Shown here: piece after piece, positions 1,396 to 56,004 of the stretch | Numbering within the stretch: position 1 is the first letter of the stretch | How the letters are laid out: each line of letters opens with the position of its first letter | Sequence record: ON210137.1 | Length of the DNA stretch: 64,000 nucleotides | Reading direction: 5' to 3' (one strand) | From: Escherichia phage EC150 | Made by a program: the position numbers and the translations under genes | The notes under the pieces: model-generated | Told to the model about the DNA's origin: nothing | Seen by the model: the letters and a program-made list of their open reading frames with translations, nothing else | Databases searched by the model: none

Positions 1396-1928
1396 TGGGC
1401 GGCTTTTGGCGTAAAGCTAAATACTCTAAAGACTTGCATTACTTCTTGGATAATGAAGGCATAAGTATATGTGGTAGGTACAGAAGGGATAATGAATCAG
1501 CGTCGCAAAGTAATAAGGCTGAATGGTTACTCAAGGAAGAATGCAAAGTTTGCCGCAAACGTTTTTGTGACAAAACTAGCATAACTGATTACATAAAGGA
1601 GCTTAGAAAAAGATGTAAAAGCCCGCAAGAGTTTGCCATAGCTCTTTGGGATGATCACCCTGAGTTGAGAAGCGAATGGTTAAAGACTGATGCAATCAAT
1701 TATATCTTCAAATCGAAATACAGGACGACAGCAAGATATAAAATGGATGAAGCAGTAATTCAGAAGGTATTTTCTTATTGGAGGGATACAGTCGATATTG
1801 TGAAAATAAAGAAATACCAAAACGAAGTGCTGCTGGAATTGGAGAGGATTGGCTATAAAGTCACCAATAAAATGATAAAAGAAGAAATAAAAAGGAGAAC
1901 GGAAAAGGGACTGATGCCTAAGATATAG
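1395..1928 (+). CDS. hypothetical Cys-rich protein (CxxC...CxxC, putative zinc-binding), AT-rich gene
   Basis: ORF track; AGGAGG at 1386-1391; ATGA overlap with upstream gene; cysteine pairs CGRY / CKVCRKRFC in translation. Confidence 0.45.
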   Translation: MGGFWRKAKYSKDLHYFLDNEGISICGRYRRDNESASQSNKAEWLLKEECKVCRKRFCDKTSITDYIKELRKRCKSPQEFAIALWDDHPELRSEWLKTDAINYIFKSKYRTTARYKMDEAVIQKVFSYWRDTVDIVKIKKYQNEVLLELERIGYKVTNKMIKEEIKRRTEKGLMPKI

Positions 1929-2177
1929 TGAATAAACGAACACTGTTTACGTGTTTTGAAGAATGGAATGTGTGCAATGGGTCGCTTTATGCGGCCTTTT
2001 GTCGTTTGGGTCGTGTTTTGCGATGGAATAATTATGATGAGGTGTTTTATTTATTGATTGTGCGGAAATATTTAGAAATATATTTCATAGGTCGTGTCTA
2101 TTGGTCCGTGGTGTTTGTTAGATTATATCTATGGATTGAAATTTTAGTGTCGTGAAACGTGGTGTTTGAACACATTT

Positions 2178-2540
2178 GATACGCCTAAAATACGGCTAAA
2201 AATTAAGCGTATCATGGCTGCAGGCCGCGTCGTTCCTGGATTCTTCTTTTTAAAATTGGTACACCCTTACGTCATGATACGTCATGGTTTTTTATCCGTA
2301 TCAGTGTACAGCCCTTGCCGCGCCTGGCTTGTACATTAATCTTACGGATGATACGGATAAAACTGGGCATCGTTATATATAAAACTCCAAAAATAAATAA
2401 ACTCCATTTTAAAAACATTTATATTAATTTTTTTCATATCCTCATACTTATGTTAATTTATATATTTAACGTATCATCCGTAAGATATAAGTAAAAACAA
2501 AGACTTGCGGCAATACGGATGATACGTCATGATACGCTTC
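2178..2540. repeat. Repeat locus A: inverted GATACGG/CCGTATC-type repeats (CTTACGGATGATACGGATAAAA at 2341-2362; inverse CGTATCATCCGTAAG at 2470-2484) flanking a ~105 bp AT-rich core
   Basis: Read directly; further copies at 2178-2196, 2208-2218, 2269-2304, 2511-2537. Confidence 0.6.
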
Positions 2541-2763
2541 AACCAGCCAGCAGCGGCTAAGTCATTGATTTGCATAACAAGCGGCGAAAGGGATGGATTT
2601 CTTTTATACGTATCAAACAGTACACCACGCACCACGGTCCGCTATTCATTCAGTACTATGATTTGTGTACGTTTACAGCCAATTTGAACATCAATCTGCA
2701 CTTGAATATAATGTTCATTCATTGTATAATTCACACTATTAATTTGCACTATGGGATTTGCAC

Positions 2764-3238
2764 TATGAGTCAAGATTATGTAGCAATGCCTGAAGACTTT
2801 GAAGACCCGCGATTTGCAGAGCATAATCAGGCATTATTCGATGAGTTCATTGACCTTGTTATTCAGGGCCATGACATGCGCGCAGCTTTTGCACTAGTAT
2901 TTGGCATGGAGGTTGCGACCGATAACTACACTGGCCAGCGAGTCCTCTGCACGCAACGCAATCCGTACTACAAGATGCGCTACAAAAAGCGTATGGAAGA
3001 GATGCCATTGAAGGAATTGTGGAGCGTAAAGAGTTCCATCCACAATTTAGTGAAGCTTGTGCGTGATCCAGAAGTCGCGGCGTCAGCCAAGCTTAATGCC
3101 ATTCGTGAACTGAATATCATCTACGGCATCACGATGATTGATGAGAATGGCAATAGTAAAATGGGCCGTTCCATGGACGATTTCTACAAGGATTTTGGAG
3201 AGGCAGCCAAAGAGGGTGAGCAATTCTCCCGCCACTAG
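2764..3238 (+). CDS. hypothetical protein (158 aa)
   Basis: In-frame ATG 2764 (MSQDYVAMPEDFED...) inside track ORF 2570..3238; upstream extension starts at TTG and is low-complexity; start codon overlapped by an ATTTGCACTAT copy. Confidence 0.5.
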
Positions 3239-3258
3239 CCAATTTGCACTATAAAACG

Positions 3259-3291
3259 GCCCTAGAACACATTTTCTCCACTTCTAGGGCC
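3259..3291. terminator. Perfect 10-bp stem hairpin (GGCCCTAGAA / TTCTAGGGCC, 13-nt loop) between convergent genes
   Basis: Inverted repeat read directly; 20 nt after stop of CDS 2764..3238; weak U-tract on minus strand only. Confidence 0.45.
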
Positions 3292-3666
3292 ATCGGTAAT
3301 ACGACGGGGAAGGTTACAACCATAAACGCGTTAGAAAGTGTATTATTATAAGTCATCTTTTAGTCACTTTACGTAACAATTTACGACCTTCCGCCGTCCA
3401 GTCGAACGACTCCACCAGCAGATTTGCACTATAACCTAAGACGATGCGCCCTTTCTCGTTATCGACCCGCCAACAAGTCTCGAATAGCATTCGATTTGCA
3501 CTATTAACTATCGCCGCAACGCGCGCTGGGTAAGCGCAATTTGCACTATGGTCGTAAAGGGATAAGGTGCGACCACTTCCGATGGACAACGTAGCGATGA
3601 GAATAAGCGTATTCATAAGCCACCAATTTGCACTATGAAAAGCGACCCCGAAGGGCCGCCATTCGA

Positions 3667-4293
3667 TTAGATGATCTGGAATGTGTATGACTTGTTGCCG
3701 AACTCGAAGTTCAAGCGCCCAGCTTCCTTAAGCTTCATGCGGAAGCGAATGTGCTTGCTATCCGGTAATCCCAGCGCGATGAAAGCTACGCGGACCGATT
3801 TGAACTCGCCTACACCCTCGACCATAACGCCGTTACGGGTGAGACGCTTTTGCGCCACTTCCTTATTATCCCAACTTTTTGCAATGCCTTCGCTATTCGA
3901 ACGGCGATGGGAAGAAGTTCCATTTTGCACTACGCAATTTGCACTATCGTTTAGGCCGCTCTTAACGAAGGCTTCATACTCTTCGTCGGTCATCGCGTCG
4001 AGTTCTTCCTGAGTCGGCTCAGACTTTTTAACGACCGCACGCGCCTTATGCGTTTTTACATCGCTGGGCACTTCCTCGCGCGGCTTCGCGTCGGGAATGG
4101 GCGATTCGTTGGACGGCTCATCGAGCGCGTTCAAGGACTCGATTAACGCGATTACGCGAGTCTCGGCGGTCCGGCGGTCCGCGAACTTTTTAATCGGCTT
4201 CGAACCGGAATTTGCGTTGTAAAATGCAACGAGGTCGGCGGTCTTAGTTGCGATAACGTCGCCGCTAGTCGAGAAGCGATTTAAGCTAACCAT
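3667..4293 (-). CDS. hypothetical protein (208 aa)
   Basis: ORF track; long ORF; no recognised motif. Confidence 0.5.
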   Translation of the reverse strand: MVSLNRFSTSGDVIATKTADLVAFYNANSGSKPIKKFADRRTAETRVIALIESLNALDEPSNESPIPDAKPREEVPSDVKTHKARAVVKKSEPTQEELDAMTDEEYEAFVKSGLNDSANCVVQNGTSSHRRSNSEGIAKSWDNKEVAQKRLTRNGVMVEGVGEFKSVRVAFIALGLPDSKHIRFRMKLKEAGRLNFEFGNKSYTFQII

Positions 4294-4373
4294 AATAAAC
4301 TCCTATTTGTTAGGGCGCTAAGCGCGAAAGAATTTTATTAAAGCGCCGCGCACGACGCTCTTAAAATCCTCTC

Positions 4374-4658
4374 TTACGCTTCGACGAGGGAGAAGGTTTC
4401 AAATTCTTCTTCGCCCATAACGAGTAAAATATTCCCGATTTCGACCGCTTCGAAGAAGTATCCGTTAACGTTTACTTCGAAGGCTTCGCGGTCCGATTCC
4501 GGTAACGCCGCGTAAAGTTTAAAAGCCTCGGCGACCGTTACCCCACCCGCTTCGATAGTTTGGTCTACGTTCGCGGCGTAGACTTCGGATAAATTTTGTT
4601 TTACGCCGTAGTTCTCGACGATAGCGTTACGGATAGAAGAAACGTTAAGAATAGCCAT
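4374..4658 (-). CDS. small acidic protein, paralog family member 1 (94 aa)
   Basis: ORF track; shares EVYAANVDQTIE / VNVNGYFFEAVEIG blocks with CDS 5292..5582; conserved promoter and leader upstream. Confidence 0.6.
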   Translation of the reverse strand: MAILNVSSIRNAIVENYGVKQNLSEVYAANVDQTIEAGGVTVAEAFKLYAALPESDREAFEVNVNGYFFEAVEIGNILLVMGEEEFETFSLVEA

Positions 4659-4726
4659 TTTAAACTCCTAGTTGGGAGAGGCGTTAACGACCTATTCGTT
4701 AACTCATCCCGTCCCGATATGAGTAC

Positions 4727-4756
4727 ATTATAATATAGTGTAGAAAAAAGTAAAGC
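4727..4756 (-). promoter_or_regulatory. sigma70-like promoter TTTACT-16-TATAAT for CDS 4374..4658
   Basis: Reverse complement of 4727-4756 reads TTTACTTTTTTCTACACTATATTATAAT; same architecture as the two promoters below. Confidence 0.5.
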
Positions 4757-4798
4757 ACTTTTTCGATAAAAATGCGATAAATTATTTTATCTTTTTCC

Positions 4799-4826
4799 TT
4801 TACTTCTTCGTACACTCGCGTATACT
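4799..4826 (+). promoter_or_regulatory. sigma70-like promoter TTTACT-16-TATACT for CDS 4882..5184
   Basis: CCTTTACTTCTTCGTACACT...TATACT read directly; followed by TATATCGAGACGGG leader element. Confidence 0.5.
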
Positions 4827-4881
4827 TGTTTATATCGAGACGGGCGATGGCCTTCCTTCTACTAGCATCGGGAGTTTTATT

Positions 4882-5184
4882 ATGACTACTTTAATCTCTT
4901 CTATCCTTACTTACGACGAAGACCGTTTAACCGTTCGTTCTCTTATCGCCGCCGTTAACGCGGAACTAGAATCCACCATCATTAAGGTCCGCGCGGTCGC
5001 TTTCGTCGGCCTTTCCTTCGACGATATTAAGTATGCCGAACGTAGCGCCATCCGCTTCGCGAAGACCGACGACGAAGCCGTTACCCTTATCGAGACGGTT
5101 ACGCCGCGCGGCGAAGCGTTAATTATCGTCGAGTATATCGACGTAGAGGGCGATAAGGCTTATAAATATTTTATCGCAAAATAA
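4882..5184 (+). CDS. small protein, paralog cassette member (100 aa), distant relative of the other two
   Basis: ORF track; GGGAG Shine-Dalgarno; shares the promoter/leader element. Confidence 0.55.
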   Translation: MTTLISSILTYDEDRLTVRSLIAAVNAELESTIIKVRAVAFVGLSFDDIKYAERSAIRFAKTDDEAVTLIETVTPRGEALIIVEYIDVEGDKAYKYFIAK

Positions 5185-5196
5185 CGAAAAAGTGCT

Positions 5197-5224
5197 TTAC
5201 TTCTTCGTACACTAAGACTATAAT
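5197..5224 (+). promoter_or_regulatory. sigma70-like promoter TTTACT-16-TATAAT for CDS 5292..5582
   Basis: GCTTTACTTCTTCGTACACT...TATAAT read directly; leader shares ATATCGAGAGGGG, GAATAGGTCG and CTCCCAACTAGGAG with the leader of CDS 4374..4658. Confidence 0.5.
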
Positions 5225-5291
5225 GTTTTATATCGAGAGGGGAGAGGAAGCGAATAGGTCGCCTTCCCGCCCTCCCAACTAGGAGAATATT

Positions 5292-5582
5292 ATGATTACT
5301 TTATCCGCTATCCGTTCCGCTCGCGTCGAGACTTCCGAAAACTCTAACGTATTTGGCGAAACCTTAGAGAGCGTTTATCTCTCTAACGTCGACGCGACTA
5401 TCGAATCTATTTATGAGCCGATCAACTTCCTCGACCTTTACAAGTATCGCGACGAGGACATCGTATCATCCCGCGTAACTATCAACGGCTTCGTCTATAC
5501 GATTACCGAAATCGGCGGCGAATATATCGCGGTCCCGCAACTCGGCGGCGAAGTAACTTATTTTAAAATCGTCTCCTTATAA
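5292..5582 (+). CDS. small acidic protein, paralog family member 2 (96 aa)
   Basis: ORF track; AGGAG Shine-Dalgarno; paralog of CDS 4374..4658. Confidence 0.6.
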   Translation: MITLSAIRSARVETSENSNVFGETLESVYLSNVDATIESIYEPINFLDLYKYRDEDIVSSRVTINGFVYTITEIGGEYIAVPQLGGEVTYFKIVSL

Positions 5583-5602
5583 TACCCTTCCGTTACTAAT
5601 AG

Positions 5603-5628
5603 GCCGCGCTTAGTCGCGGCTTTTCTTC
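5603..5628 (+). terminator. rho-independent terminator (GCCGCG-CTTAGT-CGCGGC then TTTTCTT)
   Basis: GC hairpin followed by T-tract, 20 nt after stop of CDS 5292..5582. Confidence 0.6.
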
Positions 5629-5746
5629 GTCCCTATCCCGATGCGCGTCTACGCGAAAACTCCTTTATCCTTCCCTTCGTCGTCGCATAATCTTCTTCGA
5701 GATGCTCCTTAGTTCGCATAACAGGTATTACGTTAAATGGAGAACA

Positions 5747-5820
5747 TCGCGTAAGTCCTTGTTTTATATAGACACCTATATCGGACCGTTAGGGCGGGTC
5801 GCGTAAGTCGTTGTTTTATA
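5747..5820. repeat. 22-bp direct repeat pair TCGCGTAAGTC(C/G)TTGTTTTATA (5747-5768, 5799-5820)
   Basis: Read directly; one mismatch; non-coding region. Confidence 0.55.
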
Positions 5821-5945
5821 AAGGCGCAAAACTTTCCCTTCGTTCCGAACTAAAACGAGAAATGTGCCGACCCTTCGCCCGAAAATAGTACGTATGCGAA
5901 ATTACATGCATCTCGAATAATCCCTCCCGATATTATCCTACACGC

Positions 5946-6008
5946 AATCATTCGCTTTCGAATCATTATGCTTCATATTGTTATGCGTCGAATCATTCGC
6001 TTTCGAAT
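5946..6008. repeat. 18-bp perfect direct repeat pair AATCATTCGCTTTCGAAT (5946-5963, 5991-6008)
   Basis: Read directly; non-coding region. Confidence 0.55.
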
Positions 6009-6096
6009 TGTAACGCTGGAAACTGTAACGGCGATTGATTATTGCGTTCGTGTGGTTTTTATGGCATGGGTCTTTTGGTGCGTTTTGGTACTTGAT

Positions 6097-6210
6097 GAAA
6101 TTTGCAGTACACTAATCAAAATACGACACATTTGGTCCACTAACTTTTCAAAGAAAAAGTCCTAGACAGTACCGTACTATTTTGTACCCACAGGAAATTT
6201 GCAGTACACT
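6097..6210. repeat. 17-bp perfect direct repeat pair GAAATTTGCAGTACACT (6097-6113, 6194-6210), related to the ATTTGCACTAT motif
   Basis: Read directly; shares ATTTGCA core with the 2.7-3.9 kb array. Confidence 0.55.
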
Positions 6211-6280
6211 CCTGCGCGGCAGGCAAAACAAAGGGCCGCACTAAGCGACCCACGATTCACGGTTAAATCAGCAACACCCA

Positions 6281-6661
6281 CTATTCGCTCTTATGGGCAT
6301 CACCAAAGCCATCCGCAATCTGGCTGATCAATGATTCAATGGACACAGTTTTACCAATTGATCGAGCGGTAATAGCAAGCATATTATCAATCAAACCATG
6401 ATTGGATGCGTATGGTTCAGGTTTTGAATCATCTTCAGGACAACCAAAAAGCTGGTCGCGCAAACTTTCGAGAGAACGCTCAACATTTTCCAACTTCTCT
6501 TCTAAATCGGATTGGCGACGTAAAACCCATGTCAAGTCACGGTTGCCAACTTCCAATCCATCAGAATAGCAAGGTGGAGCGTCAATTTTGTTGCTGGAAC
6601 CAAAAGCAGTGCCGCTGCCTTTAGTATAAGTATGGCTCATAGAATCATTTTTATTTGACAT
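6281..6661 (-). CDS. hypothetical protein (126 aa)
   Basis: ORF track; no recognised motif. Confidence 0.5.
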   Translation of the reverse strand: MSNKNDSMSHTYTKGSGTAFGSSNKIDAPPCYSDGLEVGNRDLTWVLRRQSDLEEKLENVERSLESLRDQLFGCPEDDSKPEPYASNHGLIDNMLAITARSIGKTVSIESLISQIADGFGDAHKSE

Positions 6662-6735
6662 ATCATTACCTTTAATATTTGGTGATTAACAATAACTATA
6701 ATAAAGCCGCATAGCGCGGCATTCAAATCGATTTA

Positions 6736-6984
6736 TTAATTGTGACGATTGGATTCATCAATCGATACCAATTGTGCAGGGTTGCCGGATACCGTTGCGC
6801 CGATGATTCCCATTTGAGAGAAAAATTCTGAATAAACCTCTTTCCAGTACTTGCGCGCTGCTTTCTGGGCTTGACCTTTGCGCTTATAACTTTTGCCTTG
6901 AAAGATGAAGCGGTCTTTTGGAGCGTAATACTCCACCACACCTTCCAGCCATTGTAAGAATGCTACTGATTCATTTTTATTCAT
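6736..6984 (-). CDS. hypothetical protein (82 aa)
   Basis: ORF track. Confidence 0.45.
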   Translation of the reverse strand: MNKNESVAFLQWLEGVVEYYAPKDRFIFQGKSYKRKGQAQKAARKYWKEVYSEFFSQMGIIGATVSGNPAQLVSIDESNRHN

Positions 6985-6991
6985 GTTAACC

Positions 6992-7387
6992 TCAATATTT
7001 TAATAAGAAAGCGCCCAACCAACTTTCCTCAATCTCGCGGCCAGTAGCCACACGGTCGGTCTTTGATATGGGTCTGGATTCGCCACAGGGCAACCCGTCC
7101 TGTAGTTGTGTACTATTGCCAATCCTCACCAGAACCTTTCCATCAGGGTCGATATAAGCGCGACAACCCATGATTTCGAGTCGTTGTAGACACTGGCGAA
7201 TCGTTTTCAGCTTCTCACCGGACCTGATAGAGCGCGGTCGCGACCGCTGACCGTTCTTATTCACTTTGCGCTTTGCAACCGGAATATCATTGATGCGCTG
7301 CGACTTGGGTCGATAATAGGCTTCTTCGCCAGGAGTTGCACCTGGCGTCAGTTCGCGTTTGAGATCCTTTTCAATATCGATGATCAT
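6992..7387 (-). CDS. hypothetical basic protein (about 131 aa; track start 7459 possible)
   Basis: ORF track; internal ATG at 7387 preferred because the N-terminal extension is Cys-rich low-complexity. Confidence 0.4.
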   Translation of the reverse strand: MIIDIEKDLKRELTPGATPGEEAYYRPKSQRINDIPVAKRKVNKNGQRSRPRSIRSGEKLKTIRQCLQRLEIMGCRAYIDPDGKVLVRIGNSTQLQDGLPCGESRPISKTDRVATGREIEESWLGAFLLKY

Positions 7388-7488
7388 GATTATGCCGCTG
7401 CAGCGTAAACAATTGCATAAGCAATTCCAAACAGCGCAGCAATACATACCGTGCCCCAAAATGCAAAGCGTCGTGACTCTTTATCCAT

Positions 7489-7722
7489 TTATTTATCCCC
7501 CAACGTCCATGAATTAAACACTAATTTTGCCATTTCATCTTGTGAAACCACATTATAGTGCTTAGGCAAATCGCTTTCTGATAATACCTTCTGGGCTTCT
7601 TCTTTTGTCTCAAAGAGAGGGATGAAAAAGACCAAGCGGTTATCTTCAGGATCAATGCCGCAGATGACGTATTTTGGCAATGCTTTTGCTTTTTGAGTCT
7701 TATCAATATCTTCAAATTTCAT
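7489..7722 (-). CDS. hypothetical protein (about 77 aa)
   Basis: ORF track; start set at MKFEDIDK methionine. Confidence 0.4.
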   Translation of the reverse strand: MKFEDIDKTQKAKALPKYVICGIDPEDNRLVFFIPLFETKEEAQKVLSESDLPKHYNVVSQDEMAKLVFNSWTLGDK

Positions 7723-7777
7723 AATACACCTCACTTGTTAACGTATAATGAGTATAACTTAATCGAGCATAAAGTAA

Positions 7778-7797
7778 AGGCGCTTTTCAGCGCCTTG
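7778..7797 (-). terminator. hairpin (GGCGC-TTTTCA-GCGCC) downstream of the minus-strand tail fibre gene
   Basis: Palindrome 7 nt below the stop of CDS 7804..10119; moderately T-rich downstream on the minus strand. Confidence 0.5.
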
Positions 7798-7803
7798 AGT
7801 GAA

Positions 7804-10119
7804 TTATTTTGCTGATTTCAGCACGGCTATCTCTGCCTTGAGTTCATCAATCTGATCCATCAATGCGAGAATAGCCTCGTGGTGCAATGCCGCTGCAACG
7901 CCGTAAGTGTCAACTGACTTGATATCTTCGACAACAGTCCCATCCTTGAGTTCCGTGTTTGAATATTTCAAAGTTTTTACTGCGTCAGGAAATACACCTT
8001 CTACATCTTGAGCTATAAATCCGATGCCATTCGGTTTCTCTGACTTATCAAGGCGCTCCCAAGTCACACCCTTGATCAATCTCATCTTTCCTAACGGGTC
8101 GGAAATCCTTTGAATATTTGTTTTGACCCTCTCATCAGACGTGCTGACCCAGTTCCCTGCAGTAGCAGTACCATCAGGCATAAATTTGAAATCTGCTGCA
8201 GCGCCTTGCCCATTGTTTATGGATATTTGCGCGTGCATCAAATCAGTTCCAGTACCTCGAACGCCTCCGAATGTATAGCTGCCAGCATACCAATCCCCTG
8301 AAAAATATGATACATACCCAGGCGTTGACTGGTTGAAGTTTATCATCCTCATACCGTTGCTTTCATACGCTGAAACGCCTACTGAATTCAACGGTTGCAC
8401 AACAAGGTCTTTTGGTCTGAGATATGCATTAACATTCAGCGCCCCGTCTGTCCTTTCCGTACTAATTTGATTTATGGAGTTAGGGAAATAAAATGTGCCA
8501 TCTTGCGCAAACTTCCATTCTTGCACCCCATTAGATATCACAGCACCTTGTTCAGACGTTAATCCATCAATCTTACCGTATGCTTGCAAGAATGCTTGAT
8601 ACGCAATGTTGGTGCCAATTTTATATTCAGATTTTACACTGCCGCCACTGACAAGCGTTCCGGTTGCAGGTTTTACTGCGTCACCATTAATAACGCTCCA
8701 AGTCGTATTCGCAGCAGCAAATCCACCCGATGCACGAATCACCCAAACGCCTACAAAGTTACGACCCATTATTTCACTGTTTGAACGGCCATAAACCGGA
8801 CTTACTCGCGAAGCATCAAAACTCACCCTAATAACACCATTACCAGTTACCGGTTCTGGTGACAATGGTGTTTCTACCTGACCCGGTACAATAGCACCCG
8901 TCTGCCCGTAGGCGACGACGCCACCAATATCCCCGTAAATGTTTGGTGCAGCTGAATCAAACACAACACCATCAGCGTTGGAGTTTGCGGTGCCATTTCC
9001 TGCGCCGTCACCTCGTCCATAAAGAGCGGCTAATGAACCGACTTGAACGCCGTTTTTGTCGGGCACACGGAAAGTCGTTGAGCCATTACCAAGAGAATAC
9101 TTTCCGCGCTTTGTTGGGTCCGCAAGCCAATCCGCATCAGCAATAGGAGTCAGCATTTGAGCATATGCCCAAAGCTCAGGCCAGTCTGCGCGGTTAAGCA
9201 ATTGCCCGTCTGCAACAACTTCATATGGCTGGATGTAAGCACGGCTATCACGAAGATGAAAATCACCAACACCATAGTTCATTACACCGTTCATGTTCGG
9301 TCCAACGGTGCCAGTGTTGATAAGGTTTTCAACCCAACGTTTAGTCGCAGCATCATAATCATTCACAGGGTCACCAGCAAGCGGAGTTGGGCCTGTCGGT
9401 CGAATATTCAACCAAGCCTGCGCATTATCCCCTGATCCTGTGCCGCCCATGGAAGTGGGCACGATATTTTGATCAGCGACTTGTCCGAATCCAAAAGCAG
9501 ACTTCATGCCCTGAATAGTACTCTGCCCTGTGCCACCGTTTGCCACTGGTACTACATCAAGTTCGCTATAAACCTTTTTCCAAGGTGACCAAAAGTCGCC
9601 ATTAAATACCCTGTTGTATTCAGGGCCAACCGTTGCTGTGTATTTTTGTGAACAAGCATTTGCTGAAATTTGGATTACTTCCAATACTCCAGACGATAAG
9701 GTTGGGTAGTTCAAAGCAGGTGATGCTGATAGACTGTTCGGCTGGTAATATTGGCCAAACCATGAACCAGTCAAAGCATTGAGATTTATTCCGTTAGGAA
9801 TCTCTCCAAAGTTTCGGACAGTACCCGTCAAAGTCGCAGCAGTAGTTCGAATGGAAAGCATGTCGCCAGCCGCCCATGCACGCGCTGCAGTTCCTTCCTG
9901 TGCACGCTGCACGGTCAGGACGTTTCCAACAACGGCTGTTACTGTGACGATTTCGAATTGGAGGCCTGTCGCAGCGTCTACGATTGTCGCCACTACACGC
10001 TCGTTTGCAGCCAAGGTCGGAAATCCCGACCCTGAGCGAATTGTGATTGTGGTGTCTGAAGTCGTCGTTGGCTGAGCGAGCGCGACCTCAAAGTTGTTTT
10101 TGAATATTAGCCTTGGCAT
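7804..10119 (-). CDS. tail fibre / tailspike protein with C-terminal intramolecular chaperone (peptidase S74-type) domain
   Basis: 771 aa; C-terminus contains SDERVKTNI and GIGFIAQDVEGVFP, which I recognise as intramolecular chaperone motifs of phage tail spikes/fibres; Gly-rich central region. Confidence 0.75.
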   Translation of the reverse strand: MPRLIFKNNFEVALAQPTTTSDTTITIRSGSGFPTLAANERVVATIVDAATGLQFEIVTVTAVVGNVLTVQRAQEGTAARAWAAGDMLSIRTTAATLTGTVRNFGEIPNGINLNALTGSWFGQYYQPNSLSASPALNYPTLSSGVLEVIQISANACSQKYTATVGPEYNRVFNGDFWSPWKKVYSELDVVPVANGGTGQSTIQGMKSAFGFGQVADQNIVPTSMGGTGSGDNAQAWLNIRPTGPTPLAGDPVNDYDAATKRWVENLINTGTVGPNMNGVMNYGVGDFHLRDSRAYIQPYEVVADGQLLNRADWPELWAYAQMLTPIADADWLADPTKRGKYSLGNGSTTFRVPDKNGVQVGSLAALYGRGDGAGNGTANSNADGVVFDSAAPNIYGDIGGVVAYGQTGAIVPGQVETPLSPEPVTGNGVIRVSFDASRVSPVYGRSNSEIMGRNFVGVWVIRASGGFAAANTTWSVINGDAVKPATGTLVSGGSVKSEYKIGTNIAYQAFLQAYGKIDGLTSEQGAVISNGVQEWKFAQDGTFYFPNSINQISTERTDGALNVNAYLRPKDLVVQPLNSVGVSAYESNGMRMINFNQSTPGYVSYFSGDWYAGSYTFGGVRGTGTDLMHAQISINNGQGAAADFKFMPDGTATAGNWVSTSDERVKTNIQRISDPLGKMRLIKGVTWERLDKSEKPNGIGFIAQDVEGVFPDAVKTLKYSNTELKDGTVVEDIKSVDTYGVAAALHHEAILALMDQIDELKAEIAVLKSAK

Positions 10120-10157
10120 TTTACGGTCCTCGTTTTGTCGACAACCGTATTATAACC

Positions 10158-10499
10158 TTAATTTCTTTTGAGAGGAATATGGCGGTTGCTGTCATTATTT
10201 GGTTTAATAATGAGCATAAAAACGATTAGAAAGATGATGGCTGATATACTTAATTCAATCAGCGCGGCTTGAGATATAGATTGATCTTCATGATACTGCT
10301 TTTGCATTTCTGCTTTCTTCTGAGCGCAAACTTCAGGTGATATGTAATCGCCTTTTGAGTTGCCATAATAAATCTCGCCATTCTCAGAAATAAGCCTGCC
10401 GCAAATATCCGTGTCAGCCTTTGCGCTTGACATCATAATAACGGTGCCGATGATAGCGGCAATTGTCCAGATTAGCAGTTGTGATAAGGTATTATTCAT
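10158..10499 (-). CDS. membrane-anchored exported protein (N-terminal signal peptide, C-terminal transmembrane helix)
   Basis: ORF track; hydrophobic N- and C-termini; AAAGAGG Shine-Dalgarno on minus strand. Confidence 0.5.
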   Translation of the reverse strand: MNNTLSQLLIWTIAAIIGTVIMMSSAKADTDICGRLISENGEIYYGNSKGDYISPEVCAQKKAEMQKQYHEDQSISQAALIELSISAIIFLIVFMLIIKPNNDSNRHIPLKRN

Positions 10500-10694
10500 G
10501 ATAACCTCTTTAATTCCCTTCCCATATCGGGAAGGGTGAATATTATTTTACGCGAAAGAATAGGCGCGTGCCACACAGCGAGTCCCAACGGCCCTCACCA
10601 TCCCATATCGACCCAACACCAGCGGTGATTGGGCCAGCAGAATTGGCGGCATTGGCCCAGGCTAGACGTTTCAACTTCCAACTGCACCAACGAT

Positions 10695-10928
10695 TCACAT
10701 TTCATCTCCAGATTGCAAAACAAGTCCCGCATAGATGATTGCTAAAGCTAAAGGCGCACCACTTCCCGCCTCTCTGTTCTCTTTAATCTGAAGAGCATCC
10801 TTAAGGAATTGCAACTGAACGTTGAATTCATTTTCAATTCCAAGCACTCCAGACAATCCTTTTACAGAATCTGCATATGCCTTGTCTAGCACTTCTTTTG
10901 GTACTGTTAAAGTCAATTCATTTGCCAT
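10695..10928 (-). CDS. small protein with C-terminal hydrophobic segment
   Basis: ORF track; internal Met start chosen to limit overlap with upstream gene. Confidence 0.4.
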   Translation of the reverse strand: MANELTLTVPKEVLDKAYADSVKGLSGVLGIENEFNVQLQFLKDALQIKENREAGSGAPLALAIIYAGLVLQSGDEM

Positions 10929-17047: not shown

Positions 17048-17968
17048 ATGACGATACCAATCAGCACGTTTCCTCTATCTGGACAAACGCCAGTATTGCC
17101 TGCTGTATATGCTAACGGTTTGGCGATTGTTTCAGAATTTACATCCGATAAAAACCTGATTGTTCCATTGAGTCCGCCATTGGCATCTGGATACAATTCA
17201 GTTGGTCAATTCTTTATGATCGGTAATGATGGCGATTCTACCAGCAAGCCGAATCTGACACTTTCAGTTCCCAAAATGAACATAACAGACGTGCAGACTG
17301 GTTTAACTGCATCTACAATCACCATCGCTTTTGGAGAAGCAGTGATTATAGGCATGGAGTCTGGAGGGTCCAAGAATGCTGTCGCCGTTAAGGTAGTCAA
17401 ATCCAGCGGCAACCAATACACGTTACCAGCGGCAACGGCTTCTGTTCTCGGCGGCGTCAAGATAGGAAGTGGCATAAGTGTTGCAGGTGACGGTACAATT
17501 AGTGTTACTCAATACTCGTTACCGATTGCATCAGCATCAACCTTGGGTGGCGTAAAAGTAGGAACGACACTATCAATTGATGGTTCTGGAGTTCTTAATG
17601 CTGCTGCAAGCAATGTGCAAAACACAAGCAATAGTGTAAGCAATCCTCCGACAACTCTGGTGAATCTGGCAACATTAAACCTGCCTGCAGGGAAATGGCT
17701 TGTGACAGCAAGTCAGTTGACTGTCGCAACAGAAGGAGTTCAAGCGAATACCGGAATTACAGTAAAATTGTCAACAAGTAATTCAGATATTACGGATGAT
17801 GCATTCACGATGTCTGCTGGCATTCGGGCTGCAGGTCGTTTCGGCGGCAATATTCCAACAAAGATAATTACTCTTGCCGCGCCTGGCAACGTGTATCTAA
17901 ACTATCAATGCACAGACGCATTGACATCTACCGTTTACGGACAGATCACCGCAATTAAGTTGAACTAA
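17048..17968 (+). CDS. structural protein with internal tandem repeat (putative head fibre/decoration or Ig-like)
   Basis: GAGG Shine-Dalgarno; tandem ~30 aa repeat YTLPAATASVLGGVKIGSGISVAGDG / YSLPIASASTLGGVKVGTTLSIDGSG. Confidence 0.45.
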   Translation: MTIPISTFPLSGQTPVLPAVYANGLAIVSEFTSDKNLIVPLSPPLASGYNSVGQFFMIGNDGDSTSKPNLTLSVPKMNITDVQTGLTASTITIAFGEAVIIGMESGGSKNAVAVKVVKSSGNQYTLPAATASVLGGVKIGSGISVAGDGTISVTQYSLPIASASTLGGVKVGTTLSIDGSGVLNAAASNVQNTSNSVSNPPTTLVNLATLNLPAGKWLVTASQLTVATEGVQANTGITVKLSTSNSDITDDAFTMSAGIRAAGRFGGNIPTKIITLAAPGNVYLNYQCTDALTSTVYGQITAIKLN

Positions 17969-18149
17969 AGAGGAAGTTATGCAAAAGATTATGCAGTCAC
18001 GTTACGTTAAAGTGCGAAATATTAATTGCAACTCTTTGCTTTCTTGGAAATGGGCTGTTTACGACTCGATGCTGATTGGCGTTTTAGTTGCTGGAGTGCT
18101 TTTTAATATTCACTGAATCGCCTGGCAATGGATTGCCGCAGGATTTCAC

Positions 18150-18425
18150 GCGTATAATGACGTATCATCCGTATCAAGTAAGTAGTTGTTTTCAAAAGAA
18201 TCTTACGGATGATACGGATGATACGCGTTGCCGCGATACTTTATAGGAATTCAAATAAATTAATTTAAAATTATATATCTAATTTAATTTTATTTTTTTA
18301 TAAACTCTTATATATGAAAAGTATCCGTATCATCCGTATCATCCGTAGCACACCAGTGATAGCGCGGCTTATACACCGATACGGATAAAAATACGCCTCA
18401 TTTTATCCGTATCATCCGTATCACA
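18150..18425. repeat. Repeat locus B: inverted arrays of GGATGATACG / CGTATCATCC units (CTTACGGATGATACGGATGATACG at 18202-18225; GTATCCGTATCATCCGTATCATCCGTA at 18321-18347) flanking a ~95 bp AT-rich core
   Basis: Read directly; shares the 17-mer CTTACGGATGATACGGA and TTTTATCCGTATCA with locus A at 2.3 kb. Confidence 0.6.
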
Positions 18426-18540
18426 CTAATTAAGGCGCGCGGCTATATCGGTTGTTATACATATTCAAACCATAATTATTGTTTGCCTAAGTTTTTTTCA
18501 TTAGATATAATACACAATACTTATTTGAGGGTGGATGCGA

Positions 18541-19953
18541 ATGCAAACGGCACGCGAAATTGACAAAAATGGATTCTTGACGATTGTGGGTTGTCCCATT
18601 TCGTCATTTGGCATTTTTGATTATTCTGCAGGTCAGGTTGGACTTGATGGTGATCCGAATCGCATCGTAAAAGTTTATCGCCCAGAGTCAGCGGTGAAAG
18701 ACCCCGAAGCGATAGATTCATTCAAAAATATCCCTTTCATCGACAATCACGAAATGCTTTCTGGATTCGAAGGTGATGAGGATAACACAGCACCCGAAGA
18801 GTATGGCGTTGATGGCGTTCTAACTGGCAATGTTTATTATGACAAGCCATGGATGCGCGGCGACCTTAAAGTTTTTAGCCGTCGTCTGAAGAAAGCCATC
18901 GATTCTGGAAAGGTTGACTTGTCTTTGGGCTATGACTGTGAATTCATCATACAGTCTGGAGAGTTTGACGGGCAGCCGTATGAAGTGGTACAGACAACTC
19001 TTCGCGGCAACCACATTGCTCTCGTGGACGTTGGTCGAGTACCAGGTGCACGGGTGCTGGATGGTCGTTGCTTTGACCATCTTTGTTTGACGACTGTAAC
19101 ACCATCCAACGAGGATTTAGACATGCCAAAACCGTTAAAAGGTAAAGCGCGTGATAATGCTGTTGAACAGCTGAAGTCGCTGATCCCTGCGCTCGAACAA
19201 TTTCTGAATGAAGAGAGCACCGAAGCTGCTCATCAGGACGAAGTTGAAGTGAAAGCAGAAGAGAAGGATTCAACCGAAGAACGTGAAGAAGTGATGGTTG
19301 ATCCAGAAGTCAAAGCAGAAGCTGAAGAGACTCCAGAAGGTGAAGAGAAGTTTGAAGTTGAAACTGAATCTCACGCTGGCGGCGAGCTTCCGCAACTGAT
19401 CAGCCAAATCGAAGCACTTATTGCAAAACTGAAAGGTGGCGCGGTAGGTGATGAAGAAGAAGTTGAAGCCGAAGTCAAAGACGAAGAAGTTGAAGTCAAG
19501 GCTGAAGATGTATCACCTTGCGACAAAGCTGAAGATGTGGTTAGCGGCCTGCAAAACAGCAACGTAAAGGGGGCTTCGGTCGAAAAAGATGACAAACCGA
19601 CAAAAGCGGCGAAAGCGTCGCCAGGTCCAGCAAAAGGGGAACACTCAATGGCATCTGATTCAGCAGTTGCTGCTTTCTACGCTGATTCTGCTCGTAAGAA
19701 TAGCCTCTACCAGCGCCTGTCTAAAGTTGTTGGTGCCTTTGATCATGCAACTATGGACTCCAAGTCCGTAGCGAAATATGGCGCTAAAAAGTTAGGCTTG
19801 AAGTGCGTTGATGGTGCTGAGTTTGACGTGGTGGATAATTATCTGCGCGGCGTTGAACACGGTCAAAAACAGCGTGTAGTCGCAAAACAAAAGGCTGCTG
19901 CGGATTCTGCAGCAACTGACGAAGCGTTTGAAGCTTGGTTGAAAGGGGAATAA
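18541..19953 (+). CDS. prohead protease / scaffolding fusion protein (putative)
   Basis: Globular N-terminal domain followed by long acidic Glu-rich coiled-coil region; immediately upstream of capsid genes; GAGGGTGG Shine-Dalgarno. Confidence 0.55.
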   Translation: MQTAREIDKNGFLTIVGCPISSFGIFDYSAGQVGLDGDPNRIVKVYRPESAVKDPEAIDSFKNIPFIDNHEMLSGFEGDEDNTAPEEYGVDGVLTGNVYYDKPWMRGDLKVFSRRLKKAIDSGKVDLSLGYDCEFIIQSGEFDGQPYEVVQTTLRGNHIALVDVGRVPGARVLDGRCFDHLCLTTVTPSNEDLDMPKPLKGKARDNAVEQLKSLIPALEQFLNEESTEAAHQDEVEVKAEEKDSTEEREEVMVDPEVKAEAEETPEGEEKFEVETESHAGGELPQLISQIEALIAKLKGGAVGDEEEVEAEVKDEEVEVKAEDVSPCDKAEDVVSGLQNSNVKGASVEKDDKPTKAAKASPGPAKGEHSMASDSAVAAFYADSARKNSLYQRLSKVVGAFDHATMDSKSVAKYGAKKLGLKCVDGAEFDVVDNYLRGVEHGQKQRVVAKQKAAADSAATDEAFEAWLKGE

Positions 19954-55026: not shown

Positions 55027-55104
55027 TTGTCCTTTGTGGGTGATATGAGAAGTATAATAGCTAAATTATTTTACAGCAACAAGTCATTTTATTTAGTACA
55101 GATG

Positions 55105-55131
55105 AAAAAAGACCCACAACAAGTGTGGGTC
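55105..55131 (-). terminator. rho-independent terminator on minus strand (GACCCACA-ACAA-GTGTGGGTC plus T-tract)
   Basis: Palindrome with AAAAAA on + strand (T-tract on minus) just below the stop of CDS 55159..56004. Confidence 0.6.
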
Positions 55132-55158
55132 AATTACCGCTGCATAACCGTCCTAAGG

Positions 55159-56004
55159 TTATTCCGCTTGATCACCGTCTTCGGCATCTTCGTTGGATTC
55201 AACATCGACAAACTCGATGTGACCCATCTCTTCCAGCTTGCTCAGGTAGGAGCGAACTGAAGCGCCAAACAGTTGATCTTTAACTTTTTCGCCCAGCTCA
55301 TCGATAGACTGTGCCACGCCAACTTCGCCTTCTTTGATCGCCGCCAGAACGCGTCCACGGGTGGAATGCTCTTGCGGCTGACTCAGGCCATTGCCAGTGT
55401 AGATGAAGTGAGTAGCTTTTGCACGACGCTGACCATTGGCCTTTTTGGCAGCCTTACGTTCTGCGATGGCTTTGCGACGTTCTTCAGCTTCTTGCTTACG
55501 CTGTTCTTTCTGCTGTTCTGCAGCTTCTTTCGCCGCAATCTTAGCAGCTTCACGCTCTGCCTTGCGTTTCGCTTTGGCTTCTTCTTTGGCCTTCTCTTTT
55601 TCGGCCTTCGCTGCAGCACGGGCTTGATCACGCTCTGCTTTCTTAGCAGCAGCTTGTTCAGCTTTCAGGCGCTTGGCTTCTTCTTTAGCCTTTGCCTTTT
55701 CGATTTCTTTCGCTGCTTTAGCGGCTTCACGCTCTGCTTTCTTAGCAGCAGCCTTTTCTGCACGCTCTTTGGCCTTCTTGGCTGCTTCTTCAGCACGCTT
55801 CTGAGCCTTCTCATCAGCAGCCTGCTTGCGTTTCAGGGCAGCTTCTTCACGCTTGGCTTGTTTTTCCTGCTCACGCTTCTGGCGTTTTTCTTCGGCTTCT
55901 TTCTTTTTAGCCAGACGTTTTTCTTCAGCCACGCGACGACGTTCTGCTGCAGCTGCTTGTTTTTCTTCTTTAGATAATACTTTGATTGCTTCGGCCATGT
56001 TCAC
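55159..56004 (-). CDS. Lys/Ala/Glu-rich repeat protein (long charged helix, histone H1-like / TolA-like repeats) with C-terminal acidic domain
   Basis: About 190 aa of KAEEAAKKA-type imperfect repeats then a globular region and acidic tail EDAEDGDQAE; repetitive DNA 55400-55950. Confidence 0.55.
   Translation of the reverse strand: MNMAEAIKVLSKEEKQAAAAERRRVAEEKRLAKKKEAEEKRQKREQEKQAKREEAALKRKQAADEKAQKRAEEAAKKAKERAEKAAAKKAEREAAKAAKEIEKAKAKEEAKRLKAEQAAAKKAERDQARAAAKAEKEKAKEEAKAKRKAEREAAKIAAKEAAEQQKEQRKQEAEERRKAIAERKAAKKANGQRRAKATHFIYTGNGLSQPQEHSTRGRVLAAIKEGEVGVAQSIDELGEKVKDQLFGASVRSYLSKLEEMGHIEFVDVESNEDAEDGDQAE

Follow-up and report, generated by a model that had tools for sequence, protein, structure and literature searches.

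A non-coding gap packed with direct repeats raises the question of what such a stretch does for the phage that carries it. We analysed a gap of this kind in Escherichia phage EC150, using a stretch of 64,000 nucleotides from sequence record ON210137.1 (hereafter, the window). The gap covers positions 5583–6280 (698 bp, stop codon to stop codon), between a plus-strand gene at 5292–5582 and a minus-strand gene at 6281–6661. An initial annotation had noticed three pairs of direct repeats in it and suggested small RNA genes, a second set of iterons, or binding sites controlling the flanking genes, which it took to be divergent. Our best reading assigns the gap to a different class, namely a terminal-repeat junction rather than a small RNA locus, an iteron set or a regulatory gap between divergent genes. 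We are highly confident of the location: the direct terminal repeat (DTR) passes into the unique portion of the genome within this gap. With more reserve, the balance of the sequence comparisons leads us to favor a role of the gap as a cis-acting junction region for genome-end formation, in which the repeats probably bind protein and direct the cut at the right end.

The location follows from relatives with mapped genome ends. The region of the window matches 28 phage records at 86–96% identity, all of them Wifcevirus, i.e., PB1-like myophages of E. coli and Shigella, and a plasmid search with the gap gave no match. The record of phage Mansfield (MK903282) annotates a DTR of 3,673 bp predicted by PhageTerm (PMC6753283), and the genome ends of phages WFC and WFH were derived from PacBio read ends (PMC6563267). 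Where a record carries both copies of the repeat, we compared its two ends, which gave DTRs of 3,784 bp (WFC), 3,701 bp (WFH), 3,899 bp (SP13) and 3,533 bp (Ro157lw), with no mismatches between the copies. The right DTR boundary of WFH, Mansfield, SP13 and Ro157lw falls at one shared site, GGGTCTTT/T(T)GGTGCG, where the slash marks the cut. In the window, the homologous site in these four of five Wifceviruses is 6075/6076, the physical right end of the genome. The boundary of WFC corresponds to 6156/6157, which is 81 bp further right but still within the gap, 47 nt before the second of two copies of the heptamer GTACACT discussed below. The left genome end, where the DTR starts, lies at 2405/2406 (...AACTCC/ATTTTAAAAAC); WFC, WFH, Mansfield and Ro157lw share this site, and the left DTR end of SP13 is within 1 nt of its homologue. 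Because the ends of the relatives map to homologous sites, we place the DTR of the window at 2406–6075 (~3.67 kb) with its right boundary inside the gap, which is thereby split into 493 bp within the DTR and ~205 bp outside. The window holds a single copy of the DTR, since the motif proximal to the small terminase gene terS is not seen again.

The three repeat pairs around this boundary are real and lie where the initial annotation had put them. The family 1 pair, TCGCGTAAGTC[C/G]TTGTTTTATA, occurs at 5747 and 5799 over 22 nt with one mismatch, and extends to 25 nt at 92% identity. The family 2 pair, AATCATTCGCTTTCGAAT, is an exact 18-nt repeat at 5946 and 5991, and the family 3 pair, GAAATTTGCAGTACACT, an exact 17-nt repeat at 6097 and 6194. 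The spacings are 52, 45 and 97 bp, respectively. Each unit occurs only twice in the window, even when three mismatches are allowed. The pairs go well beyond chance expectation: none of 2000 dinucleotide-preserving shuffles of the gap contained an exact direct repeat of at least 17 nt, and exact repeats of at least 11 nt numbered 3 in the gap vs. a shuffle mean of 0.067.

All repeat copies are described on the plus strand. The two copies of family 1 span 5747–5771 and 5799–5823, with the cores TAAGTCCTTG at 5752–5761 and TAAGTCGTTG at 5804–5813. Family 2 is a 45-bp unit present twice at 5946–6008, in which CGAATCATT/AATCATT recurs at 5946, 5961 and 5991. The two copies of family 3 occupy 6097–6113 and 6194–6210, and both contain GTACACT, the conserved core of the 17-mer, at 6107–6113 and 6204–6210; upstream of the second copy, the likeness continues as TTTTG(G)TAC. 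The first GTACACT starts 31 nt past the cut.

The gap contains no credible gene. The one open reading frame (ORF) at 5968–6165 had been suspected to be spurious, and we agree: it has no PHROG match, its start codon falls within 45 bp that phage Bas100 has lost, and SP13 carries a 1-nt insertion that throws the ORF out of frame. Most annotators of the relatives left the gap empty, and the few small ORFs that were called differ from record to record.

Repeats in untranslated DNA could also lack a function, left behind by local duplication or slippage as the sequence decays. The loss of one 45-bp unit in Bas100 would fit such an origin, as would a nearby CACGACC microsatellite that varies in copy number. 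The rate of evolution, however, speaks against decay. In an alignment of the window with 17 relatives (18 genomes) over positions 1600–10400, the gap of the relatives is 95.3% identical to that of the window with 77% invariant columns, whereas in the two flanking genes the third codon positions reach 82% and 86% identity, with 37–42% invariant columns, and the first and second codon positions 92.5–93%. Being more conserved than the third codon positions of its neighbors, the gap evolves like constrained sequence, about 3–4 times slower than those positions, and this non-coding gap is under purifying selection. Since the motifs also recur in genera with proteins only ~40% identical (see below), we consider a relic very improbable.

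Conservation is unevenly distributed along the gap. The segments with family 1 (5741–5830) and around the boundary (6011–6096) are 98.6% and 98.3% identical across the 17 relatives, the latter with 94% invariant columns, and the segment with family 3 (6097–6210) is 97.6% identical. The segment with family 2 (5941–6010) shows the lowest conservation, at 91% identity. Both GTACACT heptamers (6107 and 6204) are invariant in 18 of 18 genomes. The remainder of the first family 3 17-mer varies (five phages have GGAATTTGCGGTACACT), without matching changes in the second copy.

The boundary itself is embedded in a block of 69 nt at 6047–6115 on the plus strand, consisting of TTCGTGTGGTT, the cut, TGGTGCG, TTGGTAC and then GAAATTnnnnGTACACTAA. 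TTCGTGTGGTT begins 29 nt upstream of the cut, and GTACACTAA begins 31 nt past it. Within the genus the block is 97% identical with 92% invariant columns. We were interested in whether this arrangement extends to phages with more distant packaging proteins. The gene terS (2765–3238) lies within the DTR and matches the 'Small terminase' structure PDB 7UXE (E = 1.3e-32); tblastn with TerS found homologs in Pbunavirus (38.6% identity), in Pantoea phage PA1 (42.6%), and in Myosmarvirus and others. PA1 has the gene order of the window and a homologous gap. The boundary block, TTCGTGTGGTTTTTATGGCATGGGTCTTTTGGTGCGTTTTGGTACTTGATGAAATTTGCAGTACACTAA in the window and TTCGTGTGGTTATTATTGCGTGGTGGTCTTGCTCCAAATTGGTACTTGGCGAAATTCACCGTACACTAA in PA1, gives a local alignment score of 53 vs. 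21.6 ± 2.3 for shuffles (z = 13.9). A second copy of the boundary repeat in PA1, GAAATTCACACGTACACTAAT, follows 460 bp downstream. The PA1 copies indicate that the center of the repeat differs between genera while it is nearly identical in both copies of one genome.

A second genus with a mapped boundary is Myosmarvirus, the genus of MyoSmar and TropicalSun, with a genome-wide nucleotide identity of 17% to the Wifcevirus ECML-117 (PMC6753285). The DTR boundary predicted by PhageTerm in MyoSmar (MN062189) reads ...CAAGGGC/TGGTGCGATTTCACACAAAATGGATTGGCAC-GTACACTAAAT. As in the window, the cut is followed by the heptamer TGGTGCG, and the distance from the cut to GTACACT is 31 nt in both. A second ACGTACACT box lies 32 bp downstream in Myosmarvirus. 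In phage MTx (MK618717), the boundary lies 14 nt further left than that of MyoSmar, 45 nt before its GGACACT. The fixed order of cut and motifs is thus found in the lineage of the window and in MyoSmar, with MTx (45 nt) and WFC (47 nt to the second box) as deviants.

Other comparators were less informative. Pbunavirus PS44 was dropped as a distant comparator since its ends form no clean terminal repeat; Pbunaviruses are described as circularly permuted (PMC12345254). The first 7.8 kb of the record of Salmonella phage UALMA_PCSE1 contained neither a homologous gap nor GTACACT. Scanning our sequence collection with the bipartite motif alone gave chance matches, and longer boundary patterns found Wifceviruses only. 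One look-alike locus (L159) was rejected as an antitoxin-operator-like chance match without homologous genes.

Family 2 and family 3 recur in other genera at comparable places, and family 1 does so less clearly. For family 2 (CGAATSATT), inspection by eye found ~9 copies of GAATG[A/G]TT in PA1, within 200 bp upstream of the boundary block. Pantoea phage Kyle, with a DTR of ~3.6 kb, has 5 copies of AATSATT at the homologous place, the last of them 12 nt before the end of the Kyle record; a 31-nt stretch of the 45-bp unit of the window aligns to Kyle at 24 of 31 positions. For family 1, Myosmarvirus has two TAAGTnnTTG patterns in its gap. When the whole gap is aligned locally with this genus, copy 2 of family 1 gives the best match, to GCGTAAGTGGTTG followed 16 nt later by TAAGTGGTT, located 40–60 nt inside the DTR boundary of Myosmarvirus; the match is not significant alone (z about 1). 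A third, weaker member of family 1, GCGGCTAAGTCATTGATTTGC, lies at 2553–2577 on the plus strand, ~150 bp inside the left genome end, and keeps 19 of 21 positions in PA1, upstream of terS (z = 3.9). On these alignments, the boundary block and two of the three repeat families are common to phages whose terminases are ~40% identical.

The immediate surroundings of the gap bear on any explanation by transcription. The flanking genes are not divergent, as had been stated, but convergent on the gap, and a terminator scan found that both end in intrinsic terminators facing it. The plus-strand terminator at 5601–5622 ends the rightward genes of the terminal repeat and forms the left edge of the transcription-free gap; the records of Mansfield, WFC and WFH also carry a terminator annotation there. 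The minus-strand terminator at 6233–6251 ends a leftward operon with the tail fiber and other genes and forms the right edge. The convergent terminators insulate the gap from transcription on both sides. A similar sequence stands just outside each DTR end in inverted orientation (1978–2002, plus strand, and 6228–6252, minus strand; 88% complementary). These terminators imply that transcription from both unique flanks halts before the DTR. The earlier suggestion of binding sites therefore divides into two parts: protein-binding sites are probably the most plausible nature of the repeats, as the families are conserved and recur in other genera, whereas control of divergent neighbors does not fit genes that converge on a terminator-sealed gap.

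Small RNA genes encoded in the gap would be one explanation for structure in untranslated DNA, and the plus strand of 5685–5930 does fold far better than shuffled sequence (z = −4.1; minus strand, z = −0.9). The fold is closed by inverted repeats at 5693–5720 and 5893–5920, which stand out at the DNA level as well (z = −3.4). The signal is lost, however, in ECML-117 (z = −0.36) and in the homologous stretch of PA1 (z = −1.5 and −0.7), and most relatives have a disrupted outer stem. RNAalifold on the 18 genomes found compensatory changes in 0 of 65 pairs, a comparison of low power since the genus is >95% identical here. No tRNA and no Rfam match at the gathering threshold was found in the window or in the gap itself, the sole match with E < 1 overlapping a terminator, and no promoter and terminator are paired on one strand of the gap. 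We therefore rejected a structured RNA at 5685–5930, which appears in neither ECML-117 nor PA1 and shows no covariation, and consider the suggestion of one or more small RNAs in the gap most improbable.

The gap might also serve as a replication origin, or as a priming site for copying the terminal repeat, with the repeats as iterons. Several direct repeats in non-transcribed DNA next to a promoter-like element would be compatible with this, and the 52-bp spacing of family 1 corresponds to about five helical turns. Yet iterons would be expected as an array, and the gap has three unrelated units of two copies each, not in tandem. It contains no exact DnaA box (TTWTNCACA), no marked AT-rich stretch and no shift in GC skew (GC content of 0.46 and 0.42 in the 1-kb bins covering the gap). 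No initiator gene was recognized nearby, the neighboring proteins having no Pfam match and only PHROG matches of unknown function. With three unrelated pairs, no array and no DnaA box, the idea of a second iteron set acting as an origin was not supported, and we regard an origin in the gap as very improbable.

A more serious contender is transcriptional control, in which a regulator of phage or host origin would use GTACACT as its operator, and the coincidence with the DTR boundary would be secondary. On this view, a rightward sigma-70 promoter, starting transcription near 6120, would include the first family 3 17-mer, and the second 17-mer would be a weaker copy. The promoter-like element consists of TTGGTA (6085–6090), 17 nt and TACACT (6108–6113). 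Three genera retain its hexamers and the 17 nt between them, with a variable spacer sequence: by inspection, PA1 has TTGGTA-N17-TACACT, as does the window, and TropicalSun has TTCACA-N17-TACACT. GTACACT occurs five times in the 64 kb, at 2303 (minus strand), 4810, 5207, 6107 and 6204, all within 2303–6210. Two of these copies lie in the spacers of sigma-70-like promoters upstream of paralogous genes: the one at 4810–4816 in TTTACT-N16-TATACT (promoter 4799–4826) and its paralog at 5207–5213 in TTTACT-N17-TATAAT (promoter 5196–5224), both on the plus strand. The homologous promoter in PA1 (L029 ~10675–10712) retains GTACACT in its spacer although the adjoining spacer bases differ. Preservation of GTACACT in paralogous near-consensus promoter spacers of both the window and PA1 suggests an operator.

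At the boundary, by contrast, the promoter-like element matches only 8 of 12 consensus positions and falls below the scan threshold. No plus-strand gene lies downstream, so that transcription would proceed antisense to the leftward operon; no plus-strand terminator follows, and the predicted transcript folds no better than shuffles (z = −1.05). A promoter accounts neither for the cut, the TGGTGCG heptamer and the 31-nt spacing common with MyoSmar nor for a conserved left half of the block, TTCGTGTGGTT. We consider transcriptional control as the primary role of the gap unlikely, if plausible enough to be kept in mind. A promoter at the boundary would nevertheless be compatible with end formation, as T7 promoters adjoin the genome ends of that phage.

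We accordingly return to the gap as a region for forming the genome ends and consider how it might work. Packaged chromosomes would end on the right at 6075/6076. The three motif families, TAAGTnnTTG, CGAATSATT and GTACACT(AA), are putative protein-binding sites. Together with the block of ~70 nt (TTCGTGTGGTT, the cut, TGGTGCG and 31 nt to GTACACTAA), they probably tell the packaging machinery where to cut the right end. The region could be read by terminase, or by a factor that works with it and nicks or bends DNA, and on the concatemer it would designate the site at which the terminal repeat has to be duplicated. The right end might form either by the terminase cut that ends packaging or by a nick from which the single-copy repeat is duplicated. 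The second GTACACT box is probably an alternative or back-up site, considering that the WFC end maps 47 nt upstream of it. The terminators on both sides would keep transcription out of the junction region. Also favoring this reading are the crowding of all five GTACACT copies of the 64 kb into 2303–6210, a GTACACT 8–22 nt inside the left end in Myosmarvirus, and the position of terS within the DTR.

Several observations weigh against this interpretation. Both the binding and the cleavage at the motifs of the gap are inferred from sequence. The DTR boundary was transferred from relatives that are 90–96% identical, and the window has one DTR copy. Mapped boundaries vary, at 31, 32, 45 and 47 nt from a box, which implies that the cut may be imprecise or that the mapping methods differ. 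In Bas100, one 45-bp unit of family 2 is deleted, and two copies are hence not essential. A full local alignment of the gap with Myosmarvirus is not significant (z = 1.2), the likeness consisting of short motifs. GTACACT also occurs in promoter spacers, and its first box in the gap resembles a −10 element, so a transcriptional role fits the heptamer equally well. The Wifcevirus left end has no GTACACT inside it. The copy outside it (2303–2309, minus strand, 96 nt from the cut and pointing away from the DTR) was found in 8 of 14 examinable relatives and is not universal. This pattern indicates that the two ends are not recognized via one simple common motif.

The closest analog in layout is Repeat Region 3 of phage T5, also called the 'iss' region, which is untranslated and crowded with direct repeats, inverted repeats and palindromes (Davison, bioRxiv 10.1101/866236). 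Most of it lies inside the left terminal repeat, with 270 bp in the adjoining unique DNA, and its conservation exceeds that of the ORFs of the repeat (10.1101/866236). The gap is likewise an untranslated, repeat-rich stretch astride the inner end of a DTR and more conserved than the ORFs of that DTR. The dimensions differ, with a 10-kb repeat and a 1.2-kb region in T5 vs. 3.7 kb and 0.7 kb here. Unlike in T5, the gap has no counterpart of the paired DnaA boxes and the 131-bp inverted repeats, and there is no sequence similarity.

The resemblance to T5 raises the question of whether the gap could act as a stop during injection, such that the DTR enters first and its repeat-rich inner end halts transfer until early DTR-encoded proteins are made. 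The layout, with 493 bp inside the DTR and ~205 bp outside, corresponds to that of Repeat Region 3, and small genes of unknown function, along with strong promoter-like sites, are found in the DTR. Nonetheless, the exact DnaA box is missing from the gap, paired DnaA boxes being the conserved hallmark of the T5 region. The two regions are unrelated in sequence, and DNA entry in two steps, which in T5 depends on the pre-early proteins A1/A2, is not known from these phages. We judge an injection stop to be very unlikely.

At the concatemer junction of T7/T3, both ends of the T7 terminal repeat are cut sequence-specifically, and short repeats flank it. Promoters adjoin the ends of T7, whose terminal repeat is duplicated from a single concatemer copy. 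This junction (pac region) is a functional analog. The T7 repeat measures 160 bp, against 3.7 kb here; T7 depends on its own RNA polymerase, and the sequences are unrelated. In the cosQ-cosN-cosB region of lambda, cleavage occurs tens of bp from repeated elements bound by the small terminase, and a separate element serves the terminating cut. The gap shares this multipartite layout, as its cut lies between TTCGTGTGGTT (29 nt upstream) and GTACACTAA (31 nt after). Lambda differs in making 12-nt cohesive ends instead of a duplicated repeat, and its motifs are unrelated to those of the putative site proposed here.

The DTRs of Mansfield, MTx, MyoSmar, WFC and WFH are the same element as that of the window, and their boundaries map into this gap. 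The accounts of these DTRs give the repeat length only (PMC6753283; PMC6753285; PMC6563267). The DTR of the relatives was known already; the boundary motifs and their cross-genus conservation are not described in PMC6753283, PMC6753285 or PMC6563267.

The initial annotation had also connected the family 3 17-mer to an array at 2.7–3.9 kb through a shared ATTTGCA. In this genome the connection is real: ATTTGCA[C/G]TA has 10 matches in the window vs. 0.34 expected, all on the plus strand and all in 2742–6206. The ATTTGCACTAT array (2568–3947) brackets terS with 8 exact copies and variants, all on the plus strand. PA1 keeps an array with the core TTTGCACTA, with 7 copies and the co-motif CCACCAGCA directly after terS (L029 8444–9106), but its boundary repeat reads GAAATTCACCGTACACT. 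In place of this core, Myosmarvirus has AAAAATAAGCATGCTTTGTA three times and CCACCAGC five times (L150 6987–7492). The array bracketing terS is likely a TerS-binding, pac-like array. Since PA1 and several Wifceviruses (GGAATTTGCGGTACACT) do not share the ATTTGCA link, we did not use it as evidence.

Additional features were observed at the two ends of the DTR. The left genome end at 2405/2406 is flanked by 27-nt inverted repeats (2329–2355 and 2470–2496) containing CTTACGGATGATACG, and further copies of TACGGATGATACG and TACGTCATGATACG lie near them. The DNA just outside the left end (1929–2405) is mosaic within the genus with a mean identity of 64%, and one variant of it has ...TATGGTGCGCCGCGACTGG in common with Serratia phage MyoSmar. 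The right boundary of Myosmarvirus (L150 9598–9606 and L153 ~3575–3585) falls within GCTGGTGC, where the window has TTGGTGCG; GCTGGTGC is one base off the E. coli Chi octamer GCTGGTGG.

Variation was also seen near the gap and elsewhere. The CACGACC heptamer microsatellite at ~6247–6259, just past the leftward terminator, has 1 copy here and ~6 in Mansfield, with further variants in Bas99, SP13 and F13. Within the DTR, a small minus-strand ORF (4374–4658) is an allelic hot spot with 67% identity and no invariant column, while its neighbors are 94–97% identical to the relatives. In ECML-117, vB_Eco4M-7, SP13, Ro157lw and F13, an extra gene of 210 nt is inserted between window positions 5566 and 5567 (L012 3996–4205), upstream of the terminator; the window and most other relatives are without it. 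This gene is labeled 'transcriptional regulator' in F13 and in the database-match entries for the ECML-117 and FEC19 RefSeq records. Other repeat-rich stretches of the window lie at 17800–19200 and 55100–55850, with exact direct repeats of up to 20 and 26 nt, respectively, and the latter coincides with a strong dip in AT skew (−0.37 at 55–56 kb).

Even in T5, little is understood about the way in which phages with long exact terminal repeats select their ends and duplicate them. A junction at this place may not surprise phage specialists, yet it provides a concrete and testable signal for the formation of ends with long DTRs. The candidate is short, specific and found across genera, comprising the cut, TGGTGCG, GTACACTAA at 31 nt and two auxiliary families, and could be tested in rebooted genomes or with purified terminase, for which a homolog has been solved (PDB 7UXE). 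Many deposited Wifcevirus records have been opened at arbitrary points, and correct ends are needed for synthetic rebooting and engineering of these phages, which are under development for the control of E. coli O157 and are also part of the BASEL collection. More speculatively, and in our view rather doubtfully, the cut site, TGGTGCG and GTACACT boxes at a fixed distance, with TAAGTnnTTG and CGAATSATT as auxiliary elements, may represent a new end-formation signal for long terminal repeats in Wifcevirus, Myosmarvirus and probably Kylevirus. The reader of GTACACT would then also act in the spacers of early promoters and might couple early shut-off to the processing of the genome ends.

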